Below, piece after piece: positions 52,648 through 58,236 of a stretch of 64,000 nt of DNA. The translations under genes were made by a program, and so were the position numbers. Under the pieces are notes generated by a model. That model searched no databases, had not been told where the DNA came from, and worked only from the letters and a program-made list of their open reading frames with translations. The stretch's first letter is position 1, and each line of letters opens with the position of its first letter. The stretch is from Candidatus Eiseniibacteriota bacterium (lineage in GTDB: Bacteria > Eisenbacteria > RBG-16-71-46). Location of the stretch: contig JANMQY010000060.1 of the NCBI GenBank assembly GCA_031370785.1, positions 4,826 to 68,825 of the forward strand. The letters run 5' to 3'.

Positions 52648-53258
52648 TGCGCGTCCCTCTGGGCGTGATCGTCGCCGGCGGCCGTGGCGTGCGACTTGGC
52701 TCGGGCCCCAAGGCTCTTGTCGTTCTCGAGGGACGCACCCTCCTCGATCGAGCGATCGAGACGCTGTCCCGATGTTGCGAGGAGTGGGTCGTTGCGACGG
52801 CGCCCGACATCGAGCTGCCAGTGGACGGCGCGCGGCTCGTCCACGACGCGCCCGGAAGCGGGGGCCCGCTCGCCGGCGTCGCGGCCGCGCTCTCAGCGCG
52901 CGAGCCGACCGACACTCTGGTGCTGGGCGTGGACTTCCCGCTCGCCCGGCCGCAGGCCCTTGCCGCGCTGGCGGCACGGCGCGGGAATTCTCCGGCGGTG
53001 CTGCCGGCTCCCGGGGGTTCGCCGCAACCGCTCGCGGCGGTCTACGGCACCGCGGCGTGCGCGGCGCTGAGGTGCGCGCTTGCGGAGGGCGAGACGTCGA
53101 TCCGGCGCGCGGCGCTCGCGCTGGGGCCCCTGATCCTCGATGACGTCGCGCTCGCCGCACTCGAAGGCGGCTCCGAGAATTTCTTCAACGTGAACACTTC
53201 CGAAGATCTCGCCGAGGCGGCGCGCATGCTCGCGGCCCGAGCCGGAGCCCCGCGATGA
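52647..53258 (+). CDS. MobA-like NTP transferase domain protein (molybdenum-cofactor guanylyl/cytidylyltransferase or CofC-like)
   Basis: MRVPLGVIVAGGRGVRLG (GxxAGGxSxRxG nucleotide-binding loop) and ...LVHDAPGSGGPLAGV.... Its ATG overlaps the upstream TGA. Confidence 0.6.
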   Translation: MRVPLGVIVAGGRGVRLGSGPKALVVLEGRTLLDRAIETLSRCCEEWVVATAPDIELPVDGARLVHDAPGSGGPLAGVAAALSAREPTDTLVLGVDFPLARPQALAALAARRGNSPAVLPAPGGSPQPLAAVYGTAACAALRCALAEGETSIRRAALALGPLILDDVALAALEGGSENFFNVNTSEDLAEAARMLAARAGAPR

Positions 53259-54556
53259 GTCCCGGCGATCGAATCCGCCCGGCGAGCGATCCCAGGCTCG
53301 CGAATTCCGAGCGCTCGGGCGGCGTCCCGCTCACCAGCGTGCTGCCCGCGCTGCGCTCGCTCGAGCCGCAGGCGCGGGCGTGCTGGGTCTACGACATCGA
53401 TGCGTTCGTCGCGCGCGCGCGGCGCTTCCGCGCGGCGTTCGCGCCACTCGCTCCGCTGATCGCCTACGCGATCAAGGCGAACGGTCTGCCGGCGCTGCTC
53501 GAAGAAGCGCTTCGCGCGGGGCTCGGCGCCGACGCCGGCTCGCTCGGCGAGCTCGAGCTTGCCGCTCGGGCGGGGTTCGCGCCCGCCGGGCGCGCGCTCA
53601 ACGGCAATGGGCGGACGGCCGAGGAAGCGGCATGGGTCGCGCGTCACGGGGTGGCGCTGGTCAACGCCGATCACGTGCCCGAGCTCGACCTGCTGGAGCG
53701 CGAAAGCGCGGCGGCGGGGGTGCGGCTGCGCGTGGCGCTCAGGGTCAATCCCGGGATCGCGACGCCGGGACATCGCTACGTCTCGACCGGCGGCGACGAG
53801 GCGAAGTTCGGGATCGGCCCGGGCGAGGCGCTCGAAGCGTGGGCGGCGCGCGCACGCTGGCCCCATCTCACGCTCGACGGCGTGCAGGTGCACGTCGGCT
53901 CACAGCTGATGGAAGCGGGGCCGCTCGAGCGCGCGCTCGATACCGTGCTCGAGCTGATGAAGGAGAGCGCGCAGCGCGGCGCGCCACTTCGGCTCGTCAA
54001 CCTGGGCGGCGGCTTCGGGGTGAACTATTCGGGCACCGGCGGCGAGTTCCCGCTCGAGGAGCACGCACGATCCGTCGTCGAGCGCGCCACGCCCCTCGCG
54101 CTCGAATGGGTGCTGGAGCCAGGGCGATGGCTGGTCGCTCCGATCGGGACACTGCTCGCCGAGGTGCTGTGGGAGAAGCGACGCGACGGCCGGCGCTTCG
54201 TGGTGCTCGCGGCAGGAATGAACGATCTGATCCGGCCGGCGCTCTACGGGGCCGAGCATCGGATCGAAGCGCTCGTGCCGCGCGGGGGCGCGCTCACGCC
54301 CGCCACCGTCGTCGGGCCGGTCTGCGAGAGCGCGGATGTGTTCGCGAGGGAGGTGGCACTGCCGCCGCTCGAGCCCGGAGACGTGGTCGCGATCCGCGAC
54401 GTGGGAGCGTATGGCGCGAGCATGTCCTCGAACTACAACGGTCGGGGCCGACTCGCGGAGCTGGTCGCGGCCGGCGGCGCGCTCACGCGCGCCCGTGCAG
54501 GCGAAACGCCGGCAGACCTTTCGGCCCGCCGGCGTTCGGACGATCTCTCGTGGTGA
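53255..54556 (+). CDS. PLP-dependent decarboxylase of the Orn/DAP/Arg decarboxylase family (diaminopimelate decarboxylase-like)
   Basis: PLP-lysine context AYAIKANG, then GGGFGVNY, and the C-terminal CESADVFAREVALPPLEPGDVVAIRDVGAYGASMSSNYNGR. Its start overlaps the upstream stop by 4 nt. Confidence 0.75.
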   Translation: MSPGDRIRPASDPRLANSERSGGVPLTSVLPALRSLEPQARACWVYDIDAFVARARRFRAAFAPLAPLIAYAIKANGLPALLEEALRAGLGADAGSLGELELAARAGFAPAGRALNGNGRTAEEAAWVARHGVALVNADHVPELDLLERESAAAGVRLRVALRVNPGIATPGHRYVSTGGDEAKFGIGPGEALEAWAARARWPHLTLDGVQVHVGSQLMEAGPLERALDTVLELMKESAQRGAPLRLVNLGGGFGVNYSGTGGEFPLEEHARSVVERATPLALEWVLEPGRWLVAPIGTLLAEVLWEKRRDGRRFVVLAAGMNDLIRPALYGAEHRIEALVPRGGALTPATVVGPVCESADVFAREVALPPLEPGDVVAIRDVGAYGASMSSNYNGRGRLAELVAAGGALTRARAGETPADLSARRRSDDLSW

Positions 54557-54566
54557 TCGAGTTCTT

Positions 54567-55214
54567 CTAGAGCGCGAGGCGCGGGCGCACCGCGACCAGC
54601 AGCACCGCAGGATTGGACGCGAGATTCAGGTACGAATGCGAGCGATGCGCGCGGAAGTGCACCGAGTCGCCCTCGCGCAGCACGTAGGACTTGCCGTCGA
54701 CACGGATCTCGGCGACGCCGGACAGCACGGTCGCCCACTCCTCGCCCTCGTGATGATGGGTGAGCGCCGGTTCGCGCCGGATGGGCAGCGTCATGATCTG
54801 CGCCCCGATCGCTCCGCACTGCACCGGTTCGGTCACCGACTCGAGCAGCGCCGCGCCCCACTGCACGCGCCGATCCTGCCGCTCGTCGGCGCGCATCACC
54901 GAAACCTCGGGCAGCACACGCGGCTCGACCAGCGTCGCCGGGCGCATGTCGAGCGCGCGCGCGATGCGGCCGAGCGCGCCCACCGTCGGTGATGCCTTTC
55001 CGCGCTCGATCTCGGAGACGTGCGTGGCCGAGATGCCGCCACGCTCCTCGAGGTCCTTAAGCGTGAGCCCGCGGGAGACGCGCAGCAGCTTGATACGGCG
55101 GCCCAGCTCGCTCGGCGAGGGATCGCGCGGGCGCAGCCCGGCACTGGACTCGCGAGGCATCGTGTTTTCGTTGAGGCTGCTGGATTCGGTCGGCTCGATG
55201 GGGGGGGTGCGCAT
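54567..55214 (-). CDS. XRE-family HTH transcriptional regulator with cupin domain
   Basis: RIKLLRVSRGLTLKDLEERGGISATHVSEIERGKASPTVGALGRIARAL (HTH_3) plus a C-terminal cupin. The start may be the internal MPRESS.... Confidence 0.7.
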   Translation of the reverse strand: MRTPPIEPTESSSLNENTMPRESSAGLRPRDPSPSELGRRIKLLRVSRGLTLKDLEERGGISATHVSEIERGKASPTVGALGRIARALDMRPATLVEPRVLPEVSVMRADERQDRRVQWGAALLESVTEPVQCGAIGAQIMTLPIRREPALTHHHEGEEWATVLSGVAEIRVDGKSYVLREGDSVHFRAHRSHSYLNLASNPAVLLVAVRPRLAL

Positions 55215-55216
55215 GG

Positions 55217-55798
55217 TCAGGCGGGCTCCTCGAGCGAGCGGGTAAGTACGGCAATGATCTCGGCGGCATCGCCCTGCGCGGCGCGCAGTCGGTGCGGGAG
55301 CGTGAGCGATGCCTGCACCGCGTCACCCTCGCCGAGCGTCACACGAAGATCTCCGAACTGGGTTTCGACCCGGCCACGCCGCACCAGGTAGAGGGCGTCG
55401 CCGTCCACCTGCTGCGCCTTGAGATTGAGTTCCGGCGCCGAAGCCGAGGCGGCGAACGTCAGGCGATAGGGAAACATCCTGCTCCCCGGGATGCCTGGCG
55501 TCAGCGCTTCGGCGGTGATGCCCTCAGCGGGAGTCAGCATGTGCGCCTTCTCGCGCGTGACGTATGCGGTCTCGGCGCGCTCGTCGCGCTCGATGAAATA
55601 GGAAGCGTCCTTCTCGAGCGCGCGTGCGATGCGCACCAGCGCGCCGATTGTGGGAGAGGTGCGACCACGCTCGATCTCGGAAAGGTGGGTGGCCGAGAGG
55701 CCCGAGGCCTGCTCGACCTGCTTCAACGTCATGCGGCGCTCCAGACGGAGCTTCCGGATGCGCCTGCCCAGTTCATCAATCTCGACGATGGAAGTCAT
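55217..55798 (-). CDS. XRE-family HTH transcriptional regulator with cupin domain (paralog of downstream neighbour)
   Basis: RIRKLRLERRMTLKQVEQASGLSATHLSEIERGRTSPTIGALVRIARAL plus a cupin. It lies 2 nt upstream of the 54567 gene. Confidence 0.75.
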   Translation of the reverse strand: MTSIVEIDELGRRIRKLRLERRMTLKQVEQASGLSATHLSEIERGRTSPTIGALVRIARALEKDASYFIERDERAETAYVTREKAHMLTPAEGITAEALTPGIPGSRMFPYRLTFAASASAPELNLKAQQVDGDALYLVRRGRVETQFGDLRVTLGEGDAVQASLTLPHRLRAAQGDAAEIIAVLTRSLEEPA

Positions 55799-55825
55799 GG
55801 GTTTGCGTTCCCTCGGTGCCGCGCT

Positions 55826-55847
55826 GCCTGCGCCCGGTGGCGCAGGC
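55826..55847. promoter_or_regulatory. perfect 8-bp inverted repeat in the leader/promoter region of the XRE-cupin tandem
   Basis: GCCTGCGC-ccggtg-GCGCAGGC lies about 30-50 nt upstream of the 55798 start and is a candidate autoregulatory operator. Confidence 0.3.
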
Positions 55848-56326
55848 CGGAAGGGGCCTTGTAGTGAAACGGACTACGCACGTGCCGTTTCGATATAGGG
55901 GGCTGCGGATCTCGGACGAAGGATACCTATCGCGCACACTCGTCTGACCCGCACCAGTTGCTGGCACCCATGATTCAATTGCCTGTTGCACCCGAGGGGG
56001 GACACGGGTGCGAGCGGATTCCCCCGTGAAAGGGGAACGGCCGCGCGAGAAATGTCACGGCTGATGATGACACATCCCTGAAATCATGGTCAAGGACGAT
56101 AGCCCTGCACCTCATCCGCCGGCGCCTTCCGGTCTAGCGATCGCGAGGCGGGTTTGGAAGAGGTGCGATCGCGGCGGCGTTGGGCGCAGGCGTTGTGGGT
56201 CGTGCGTGTCGTGCTCGTGACACGGAGGCGAGGTCTGGCGCGCCATTGCCCCCGATTCGTCGCGACGTTCCGCAGCCTTGACACCTCGGCCCGCCGAGCG
56301 CGAAACTGCGCCTCGAAACCCACGCT

Positions 56327-56377
56327 TTGCATCTGCAAGAACGTCGGTTGCGCGCCACTTTGTGAAAGTTGGCGCAA
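56327..56377. promoter_or_regulatory. two palindromic elements 50-100 nt upstream of etfB
   Basis: TTGCAtcTGCAA (56327-56338) and the 30-nt near-palindrome TTGCGCGCCACTTTGTGAAAGTTGGCGCAA (56348-56377). The latter shares the TGCGC...GCGCA ends seen in the 55826 repeat. Confidence 0.35.
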
Positions 56378-56424
56378 GACCGATGCGCGCTCGAGCCGAA
56401 ACGCCTCCACCTTAAGGGGACTTC

Positions 56425-57177
56425 GTGATCCAGGTCGTGTGCATCAAGCAGGTGGCCGACACCGAGACCCGCGTGAAGGTGGCAGCCGATGGCAAGAGCC
56501 TCGACCCCGCGGGCGTCACCTGGATTCTGAATCCCTATGACGAGTTCGCGGTCGAGCAGGCGCTTCGCGTCAAGGAGCAGCTCGGCGCCGGCGAGGTGAT
56601 CGCGATCTCGCTTGGAGGCGCCGGCGTTCCGACCACGCTTCGCAGCGTGCTCGCGATGGGCGCGGATCGCGCGATCCATCTGAAGGCCGACGGCCCGGCG
56701 CCGGACTCGCTGCAGGTGGCACGAGCTCTCGCCACCGAGATCGCACCGCTTGGCGCGGGACTGGTGTGGCTCGGCAAGCAGGCGGTGGACGACGATGCCG
56801 CGCAGGTCGGACCCATGCTCGCCGAGTTGCTGCATCTGCCGTGCGTGACGGTGGTCGCGAGCTTCGAGCTGGCGGGCGATCGTGCGAAGGTCGAGCGCGA
56901 GATCGAGGGCGGCCGAGAGGTCGTCGAAGTCACCCTTCCCGCCGTGCTCACCGCGGACAAGGGACTCAACGAGCCGCGCTACGCCTCGCTCAAGGGCATC
57001 ATGGCCGCGAAGAAGAAGACCATCGACGAGAAGCCGGCCGCTCTCGGAGAGCCCAACCTCGAGGTCAAGTCGCTGGCGCTGCCGCCTGCGCGTTCGGCCG
57101 GACGCATCGTCGGCAAGGGCATCGAAGCGGTGCCCGAGCTGGTGCGGCTGCTGCGCGAAGAAGCGAAGGTGATCTGA
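56425..57177 (+). CDS. etfB: electron transfer flavoprotein beta subunit
   Basis: MIQVVCIKQVADTETRVKV...ILNPYDEFAVEQALRVKE is canonical EtfB. Confidence 0.85.
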   Translation: MIQVVCIKQVADTETRVKVAADGKSLDPAGVTWILNPYDEFAVEQALRVKEQLGAGEVIAISLGGAGVPTTLRSVLAMGADRAIHLKADGPAPDSLQVARALATEIAPLGAGLVWLGKQAVDDDAAQVGPMLAELLHLPCVTVVASFELAGDRAKVEREIEGGREVVEVTLPAVLTADKGLNEPRYASLKGIMAAKKKTIDEKPAALGEPNLEVKSLALPPARSAGRIVGKGIEAVPELVRLLREEAKVI

Positions 57178-58154
57178 TGAGCATCCTGGTTTTCATCGAG
57201 CAACGCGAGGGTCGCGTCCGTCCCGTGTCGCGCGAAGCGCTCGGCGAAGCGACGCGACTGGCAGCAACCCTGGGCGGGCCGGTCGTGGGTGTGTGCGCGG
57301 CCTCCGCGGATCCGGGACTCGCGGCGCTCGGCGCTGCAGGCGCCGACAAGGTGCTGCTCGCGACGGGTCCGCGCTTCGAGTGGTACGACGCCGAGGCCAT
57401 GACCGCGGCGGTCGTCGCCGCGATCGAATCGCTCGAGCCCGATCTGGTGCTGTTCGCCGCCTCGGCGATGGGCAAGGACCTCTCGCCGCGCGTCGCGGCC
57501 AGGATCGGCGTGGGGCTGGCCTCGGATTGCACCGCGCTCACCCCGCAGGGCGGAACGCTGCTCGCGAGCCGACCGGTGTTTGCGGGCAAGGCGCTCCAGA
57601 CCGTGCGCTTCCCGCGCAAGCCGGCGATGGCGTCGCTCAGGCCGAAGGTGTTCGCGACCATCACCCGCGAAGGCGCGACCACCCCGGTCGAGCGGCTGGT
57701 CGTGGCGCTCGATGCCGCGCCGTCGCGCGCCCGCGTCACGAGCGTGGTCGCGGCCTCGGGCGGCAAGACCGACCTGACCGAGTCCGAGATCATCGTGTCG
57801 GGTGGACGCGGGCTCAAGGGGCCCGAGCATTTCGATCTGGTCGAGAATCTCGCCGCGGCGCTCGGCGCGACCGTGGGCGCTTCGCGCGCGGTCGTGGATG
57901 CCGGGTGGCGCCCGCACGCGGATCAGGTCGGACAGACCGGCAAGACGGTTTCGCCCAAGCTGTACGTGGCGGTTGGAATCTCGGGAGCGATTCAGCACCT
58001 CGCGGGCATGTCGTCCTCGCGATGCATCGTCGCGATCAACAAGGATCCCGATGCGCCGATCTTCAAGGTCGCGGACTACGGTCTGGTCGGCGACCTGTTC
58101 GAAGTGGTGCCGGCGCTCACCGAGGCGGTGCAGAAGCTCAACGCGCACGTCTGA
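57177..58154 (+). CDS. etfA: electron transfer flavoprotein alpha subunit
   Basis: MSILVFIEQREGRV..., and the FAD-binding C-terminus LYVAVGISGAIQHLAGM...VAINKDPDAPIF. Its ATG overlaps the etfB stop. Confidence 0.85.
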   Translation: MSILVFIEQREGRVRPVSREALGEATRLAATLGGPVVGVCAASADPGLAALGAAGADKVLLATGPRFEWYDAEAMTAAVVAAIESLEPDLVLFAASAMGKDLSPRVAARIGVGLASDCTALTPQGGTLLASRPVFAGKALQTVRFPRKPAMASLRPKVFATITREGATTPVERLVVALDAAPSRARVTSVVAASGGKTDLTESEIIVSGGRGLKGPEHFDLVENLAAALGATVGASRAVVDAGWRPHADQVGQTGKTVSPKLYVAVGISGAIQHLAGMSSSRCIVAINKDPDAPIFKVADYGLVGDLFEVVPALTEAVQKLNAHV

Positions 58155-58207: not shown

Positions 58208-58236
58208 TTGACGGTCGCGCGCTCGGACCGTAGGGT
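58208..58236 (+). promoter_or_regulatory. sigma70-like promoter candidate for the nuo operon
   Basis: TTGACG, 17 nt (gtcgcgcgctcggaccg), then TAGGGT, about 60 nt upstream of the nuoA start. Confidence 0.3.

Follow-up and report, generated by a model that had tools for sequence, protein, structure and literature searches.

The DNA analysed here is a 64,000-nucleotide stretch from a Candidatus Eiseniibacteriota bacterium, referred to as the window, with a G+C content of 67.7% (rounded to 68% elsewhere). Within it, a gap of 626 bp (55799-56424) separates the ATG of reg1, which is read on the minus strand, from the GTG of etfB at 56425 (Table 1). To the left of the gap lie lysA and the tandem regulator genes reg2 and reg1; to the right, etfB and etfA are followed by nuoABCD, an order that is kept in every locus of the clade with enough downstream sequence. 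The closest named NCBIfam relative of Reg1 is PuuR, with a score far below the cut-off, and the alignment of Reg1 homologues begins at residue 1. A further promoter-like sequence, TTGACG-N17-TAGGGT, is present between etfA and nuoA (58208-58236). The gap had first been singled out for its unusual length, and rightly so: the median intergenic gap is 38 bp and the 626 bp are among the longest, on a gene map and a gap-length distribution that are rough, because the gene caller is crude and several other 'long gaps' are its artefacts.

Table 1. Genes and sequence features in and around the gap between reg1 and etfB (positions in the window; dot, no strand)
Feature	Position	Strand	Remarks
lysA	53255-54556	+	TIGR01048, above cut-off
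reg2	54567-55214	-	XRE-HTH and cupin; paralogue of reg1
reg1	55217-55798	-	XRE-HTH and cupin regulator (Pfam HTH_3 and Cupin_2); its start bounds the gap
reg1 ribosome-binding site	55814-55808	-	GAGGGAA
Predicted reg1 5' leader	55799-56057	-	about 258 nt; extent as predicted from the 56093-56064 promoter
Perfect 9-bp inverted repeat	55826-55847		GCCTGCGCC-cggt-GGCGCAGGC
7-bp stem	55866-55872 and 55885-55891		GAAACGG/CCGTTTC
G/C-run hairpins	55988-56037		in the reg1 leader
reg1 promoter	56093-56064	-	sigma-70-type; TTGACC, 18-nt spacer ending TGTG(T), CATCAT
Inter-promoter spacer	56094-56277	.	variable, no sequence conservation, no detectable function
etfBA promoter	56278-56307	+	sigma-70-type; TTGACA-N18-GAAACT (-35, 56278-56283; -10, 56302-56307)
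Predicted etfB 5' leader	56314-56424	+	about 111 nt; extent as predicted from the promoter
Palindrome	56327-56338		TTGCATCTGCAA; in the etfB leader
30-nt palindrome	56348-56377		imperfect, one-base offset between the arms
Left arm of the 30-nt palindrome	56348-56359	+	TTGCGCGCCACT; no detectable constraint
18-bp site	56360-56377	+	TTGTGAA-AGTT-GGCGCAA; right-hand 18 nt of the 30-nt palindrome, in the etfB leader
etfB ribosome-binding site	56415-56420	+	AGGGGA
etfB	56425-57177	+	Pfam ETF / ETF_alpha matches for etfBA
etfA	57177-58154	+	Pfam ETF / ETF_alpha matches for etfBA
nuoA-D	from 58275		after etfBA; Pfam matches for NuoB and NuoC

Concerning the coding capacity of the gap, the open reading frames had been judged non-coding, and our analysis agrees. 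They show neither a codon-position G+C bias nor a Pfam match nor frame-consistent conservation. Translated matches between loci fall in several frames and therefore reflect conservation of the DNA only. A repeated or mobile element was also considered and rejected, as no second copy of any part of the gap exists within the 64-kb window.

About 75 related loci of Candidatus Eisenbacteria were compared, together with a sister strain. A search with EtfB yielded 69 genome loci, and almost all of the closest ones, with 73-81% identity at the amino-acid level, come from MAGs of Candidatus Eisenbacteria; a search with Reg1 yielded 80 metagenome loci. The order lysA, reg2, reg1, gap, etfBA and nuoABCD is found in 56 non-identical loci, and in these the gap is always long (295-761 bp). 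About 20 further loci of the clade are without the regulator pair, and most of these have lysA immediately ahead of etfB. Across Eisenbacteria the tandem XRE-cupin pair between lysA and etfB is present in some loci and absent from others (compared in L003, L005, L007, L010, L013, L020 and others). Only the approximately 150 nt nearest to etfB can be aligned across loci. The distal gap shows no conservation of DNA or peptide, even relative to the nearest species, with 79% identity in Reg1.

Two promoters recur among these loci. Ahead of etfB, a sequence of the form TTGACN-N17/18-NANACT is found in 73 of 75 related loci, and from its position in the window the transcription start of etfBA is predicted near 56314. 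On the opposite strand, the reg1 promoter was the sole promoter-like match of a consensus scan of 55600-56600, where 0.1 matches were expected; about 30 of the 56 loci have a corresponding sequence, cTTGACs-N12/13-TRTG-nAnnnT, on that strand. A k-mer search of the distal parts of the gap recovered CTTGACG alone, which belongs to this minus-strand promoter. The reg1 promoters carry TRTG just upstream of the -10 element, i.e. an extended -10, and the etfB promoters do not. Extended -10 elements of the TRTG type are of the kind described in Gram-positive bacteria. From locus to locus the length of the reg1 leader lies anywhere between about 50 and 340 nt, and its sequence is not conserved even in comparison with the closest species; the spacer between the two promoters ranges from 14 to 311 nt. 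In the window this spacer contains an indel hot spot (56153-56220), where the sister strain (L150, L152) lacks 10 nt and carries an insert of about 113 nt. The gap is best described as two predicted sigma-70-type promoters placed back to back, each followed by a long untranslated leader whose start site is likewise a prediction.

Within the etfB leader, one short sequence stands out. In 47 of the 56 regulator-bearing gaps there is a single exact TTGTGAA, which invariably lies on the etfB strand, 54-145 nt ahead of the etfB start codon; a search based on TGTGA finds the site also in 14 of 20 upstream regions that are without regulators. Loci without the motif include L001, L003, L010, L013 and L081. 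When 57 sites are aligned without gaps, there are invariant columns on either side and the spacer is always 4 nt, so that the element has a fixed length of 18 nt with the logo T1 T2 G3 T4 G5 A6 A7 - N4 - G12 G13 C14 G15 C16 A17 A18. C16, A17 and A18 are conserved, and T1, A7 and A18 hardly vary at all. In the right half the sequence GGCGCAA is kept, with G12 in 43, G13 in 47 and G15 in 50 of the 57 sites; T is the sole alternative to G at position 13. Just before the 18-mer, A-2 and C-1 are conserved as well. Scored with a weight matrix derived from the other 56 loci, without the window, the site reaches 34.9 bits, and the next best score in the 64 kb is 4.6. The site starts at +35 to +67 from the predicted transcription start, and the copy in the window is centred near +55. 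By this comparison of loci, the 18-mer is the only deeply conserved candidate regulatory element of the gap. The view that the gap is regulatory is supported.

Three further observations concern the surroundings of the site. A GYG at the fixed position -9 to -7 (56351-56353 in the window), 12 nt upstream of the main half-site, is found in 28 of 57 loci. Auxiliary TTGYR half-sites were considered and rejected, since they occur at -11 in only 5 and at -32 in only 3 of 57 loci and are confined to near relatives of the window. In one locus (L049, 1227-1305), the etfB leader contains 6.6 tandem copies of a 12-nt unit, GCCATGATGCTG, between the Rex-like site and the start codon.

An identical Reg1 is encoded on three contigs, of which one is identical to the window and two (L150 and L152) represent the sister strain. 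The divergence of this strain from the window is about 8.5% in lysA and, besides indels, 10-13% in the gap; reg2 and reg1 are identical at the DNA level. No change affects the 18-mer or the core of either promoter, i.e. both hexamers of the etfBA promoter and the -35 element and TGTG of the reg1 promoter. The remaining features have changed. Of the 22 nt of the 9-bp repeat, 5 are altered, with one compensatory and one disruptive change. Two changes in the CCGTTTC arm are without compensation, the G/C-run hairpins have decayed, and the 30-nt palindrome has TTGCGCAGCA as its left arm, with 2 changes that are not compensated either. The pattern of constraint in the sister strain matches that of the deep comparison. 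A stretch covering reg2 and reg1 (window about 54600-55827) has zero DNA differences from L150 and L152 despite the diverged surroundings. This could result from a recombination tract that covers exactly both regulators or from a chimeric metagenome assembly.

These data allow the repeats and hairpins that had been listed in the gap to be weighed individually. Every one of them is found where it had been placed, and several turn out to be other than described. The inverted repeat near reg1, given as 8 bp, is a perfect repeat of 9 bp; there are 13 such perfect 9-bp repeats in the window, and a first-order Markov simulation gives P ~0.014 for the gap. The stem GAAACGG/CCGTTTC is present, but it is at chance level, because 7-bp stems occur about 4 times per kb in a window of 68% G+C, and it decays in the sister strain. 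All these distal hairpins, including those of the G/C-run, lie in the reg1 leader. Both palindromes upstream of etfB exist as well; the one of 30 nt is imperfect, with its arms offset by one base. It does contain a strongly conserved cis-element, but the palindrome itself is not the conserved unit, which is the asymmetric 18-mer: the left arm is missing in many loci (e.g. L008, L014, L019 and L051). The palindrome TTGCATCTGCAA is kept in the nearest relatives only. As far as the comparison of loci reaches, the hairpins and palindromes other than the 18-mer are lineage-specific sequence without demonstrable function.

The original prediction had considered that the G/C-run element acts as an attenuator or antiterminator, or that the region encodes a small RNA. 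More generally, the conserved element might act at the level of RNA, either as a hairpin or single-stranded protein-binding motif in the etfB leader or as an attenuator or riboregulator in the reg1 leader. The motif does indeed keep to the sense strand and falls within the predicted etfB leader in every case, UUGUG and CGCAA can pair, with a conserved U-G wobble between U4 and G15 in 50 of 57 loci, and the window sequence at the 18-mer folds into a 44-nt hairpin; in the reg1 leader, the compensatory change of the 9-bp repeat in the sister strain is from C-G to T-A. However, two hairpin models were tested on the ungapped alignment of 57 sequences and rejected: in hairpin A (UUGUG/CGCAA plus outer helices) 65.9% of the cells are paired as compared to 67.7% in column shuffles, 465 of 500 of which were as high, and hairpin B, which pairs the left and right arms of the window palindrome, has 62.0% as compared to 60.5% (63/500). 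The two flanks of a site are no more complementary to each other than flanks combined across loci (z = -0.2 to -0.5), and RNAalifold predicts 0 pairs in the 57 sequences. A comparison of L075 with L078 looked compensatory for the hairpins and did not survive statistics. Folding is insignificant against dinucleotide shuffles throughout: z = -0.64 for the etfB leader and -1.86, +0.49 and -1.04 for the reg1 leader, the latter two values being those of the G/C-run hairpins on the plus and the minus strand, respectively. Beside the reg1 start, no conserved hairpin is seen over 56 loci (mean z = -0.27).

An Rfam 15 scan of 54500-57500 on both strands, with E-values up to 10, gave chance matches and no family. 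The sole match inside the gap was sR55, a snoRNA family of archaeal/eukaryotic type, at 56057-56121 (E=6.8; 14.2 bits as compared to a gathering score of 35). No terminator-like site exists in 55600-56600. The G/C-run hairpins, though present, are not mutually exclusive as had been supposed: the minimum-energy fold has both side by side, there is no U-tract, and together with the GAAACGG stem they decay without compensation in the sister strain. Neither the attenuator nor the small RNA is therefore supported. Since excess pairing and covariation are lacking, we read the 18-mer as sequence and not as folded RNA; an action of the element through RNA appears improbable.

A second proposal concerned the two regulators. 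Based on the TGCGC...GCGCA ends shared by the two palindromes, it held that one regulator, possibly an XRE-cupin protein, controls etfBA; in its wider form, etfBA expression would be linked to a small-molecule signal through binding of Reg1 and/or Reg2 to the palindromes. PuuR-type XRE-cupin proteins are repressors of neighbouring genes and act on divergent target operons. The arrangement at hand resembles this, in that regulator and candidate target are divergent in about 56 loci and, in the window, arms of the form TTGCGC...GCGCAA flank the core. Yet the motif and the regulators dissociate both ways: the motif is present in 14 of 20 loci without the regulators and is absent or decayed in 9 loci that bear them. 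Moreover, the left arm of the 30-nt palindrome is not conserved, the arm spacing of the two palindromes differs (4 nt as compared to about 14 nt), and in the DNA proximal to reg1 no common motif was found except for a promoter -35 element. In the sister strain, with its DNA-identical regulators, both proposed operators are changed and the 18-mer, which is the conserved unit, is not. Control of etfBA by Reg1 or Reg2 through the palindromes is thus very unlikely.

The 18-mer itself resembles the operator of the NADH-sensing repressor Rex. The published Rex operator is TTGTGAANNNNTTCACAA, i.e. TTGTGAA-N4-TTCACAA (PMC5355995, PMC2883068, PMC6391272), and that of S. aureus has been given as TTGTGAAW4TTCACAA (PMC2883068). 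The left half of the site (56360-56366) is a perfect Rex half-site, and the right half agrees with TTCACAA at 4 of 7 positions (C14, C16, A17 and A18), with G12, G13 and G15 in place of T, T and A. With 3 mismatches to TTGTGAANNNNTTCACAA, the site is the sole such match in the window. Relatives come nearer to the consensus: the sites of L007 (TTGTGAA-TGGA-TTCACGA, TTGTGAATGGATTCACGA), L006 (TTGTGAA-ATCA-TTCCCAA, TTGTGAAATCATTCCCAA) and L029 (TTGTGAA-CCCA-GTCACGA, TTGTGAACCCAGTCACGA) are close to it, and the T that is the only alternative at position 13 is the Rex consensus base. A weak right half is not foreign to Rex operators either. The B. subtilis consensus, WWTGTGAANTNNTNNNCAAW, retains little beyond the terminal CAA in that half, and Rex is able to bind TTGTGAA half-sites (PMC5355995). 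The location of the site can also be accommodated, as Rex binding downstream of the transcription start is on record for cydA1 (-3 to +25) and wblE (+108 to +135) (PMC5355995). In the related loci the 18-mer lies downstream of the promoter that is kept in 73 of 75 of them, and the genes that follow are etfBA and then nuoABCD; the operons repressed by Rex include nuoA-N, cyd and atp (PMC5355995).

Several points weigh on the other side. The conservation of GGCGCAA as such is not explained by a symmetric homodimer and counts against Rex. Searches for rex by regular expression and phmmer were negative for both the 64-kb window and 149 loci, and among the best 120 of 7420 Rex homologues in a protein search, which are 60-94% identical to Thermus Rex, no named one is from Eisenbacteria; a literature search gave nothing on Rex in Eisenbacteria or the FCB group. 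Finally, a single candidate regulon member is available, so that there is no support at the level of a regulon.

A rival reading takes the 18-mer as the operator of another protein, be it a regulator of the CRP/FNR family or an unknown factor that binds asymmetrically. The CRP consensus half-site is aaaTGTGAt, and CRP/GlxR-type sites have the form TGTGA-N6-TCACA. The core of the 18-mer, TGTGA-N6-nCnCA, fits this architecture as well as that of Rex, its right half is held as GGCGCAA without drift toward TTCACAA, a rex gene was not found in the lineage within the loci and homologues searched, and the upstream GYG, seen in about half of the loci, together with the conserved A-2 and C-1 points to an asymmetric footprint of more than 18 bp. 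But the near-invariant T1, A7 and A18 belong to the Rex half-site TTGTGAA/TTCACAA and not to the CRP consensus, and activators of the CRP type do not act from where the site is found, near +55, downstream of the promoter with a varying distance between the two. The variable distance between promoter and site fits a roadblock repressor and not an activator. Respiratory gene neighbours, moreover, fit Rex regulons (PMC5355995). An operator for a protein of the CRP/FNR family or for some other factor is hence rather unlikely. Several further candidates were rejected by inspection: a sigma-54 promoter, a downstream class II promoter and ARG-box, FNR, RamB and PsrA sites do not fit in spacing or invariant bases. 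Downstream of the 18-mer there is no conserved -10-like element.

The upstream GYG and, around 56371-56375 (motif positions 12 to 15), the right half GGCGCAA suggest an asymmetric footprint. In a further reading the element would be something other than a plain Rex operator. TTGTGAA, GGCGCAA and the phased GYG would then form a composite site, read by a lineage-specific complex such as a Rex variant with a second factor, possibly an XRE-cupin protein. We give this only slight credence; if true, control of ETF and complex I would be tied to a metabolite signal as well as to NADH.

On balance we favour, with a probability a little under 60%, the reading of the gap as a pair of divergent promoters with long leaders in which the 18-mer is the predicted operator of Rex. 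Because of the Rex layout, the near-consensus sites of relatives, the published Rex targets and the invariant bases, we propose a Rex-type, NADH-responsive repression of etfBA. Under this proposal reg1 would be transcribed leftward from 56093-56064, with a poorly conserved leader of about 258 nt and of variable length among loci, and etfBA rightward from 56278-56307, with a leader of about 111 nt. As long as the NADH/NAD+ ratio is low, the 18-mer would be occupied by a Rex dimer, which would block the elongating RNA polymerase; with rising NADH Rex would leave the DNA, and etfBA, which adjoins the complex I genes, would be derepressed. If this is true, NADH/NAD+-responsive repression of respiratory genes reaches Candidatus Eisenbacteria, and etfBA, directly ahead of the complex I operon, joins the known Rex targets. 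Irrespective of the protein, the consensus TTGAC-N17/18-nAnACT and the weight matrix of the site can be used for annotating regulation in Eisenbacteria MAGs. The locus also illustrates that in DNA of 68% G+C conspicuous palindromes and hairpins are mostly due to chance; it was the comparison of related loci that singled out the one constrained element.

Set against known systems, the locus shares with PuuR-type systems the head-to-head arrangement of HTH_3 and Cupin_2 regulators with a metabolic operon. It differs from them in that no operator common to the regulators was found and the motif does not co-occur with the regulator genes. With CRP/GlxR-type sites the 18-mer shares the TGTGA...CnCA core and its spacing. 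CRP sites, however, have A/T-rich flanks of the opposite polarity, as compared to the invariant or nearly invariant T1, A7 and A18 of the 18-mer, which moreover lies about +55 downstream of its promoter at a variable distance. As compared to known Rex operators, the 18-mer has a right half, GGCGCAA, that agrees at 4 of 7 positions only and is itself conserved. In contrast to known Rex systems, its host is an uncultured phylum of the FCB group, no Rex has been described in that phylum, and no cognate rex was found in the window and the 149 loci. The operon that it precedes is etfBA, upstream of nuo, and not nuoA itself, which has a promoter-like site of its own (58208-58236). What the 18-mer has in common with the Rex operators of Streptomyces, Bacillus and Staphylococcus (e.g. 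S. avermitilis nuoA1, cydA1 and wblE; PMC5355995) is the 18-bp layout, in which 4 nt separate TTGTGAA from an inverted partner with CAA at its end. Like the 18-mer, these operators lie in or downstream of respiratory or redox promoters, and a weak second half-site is tolerated in them.
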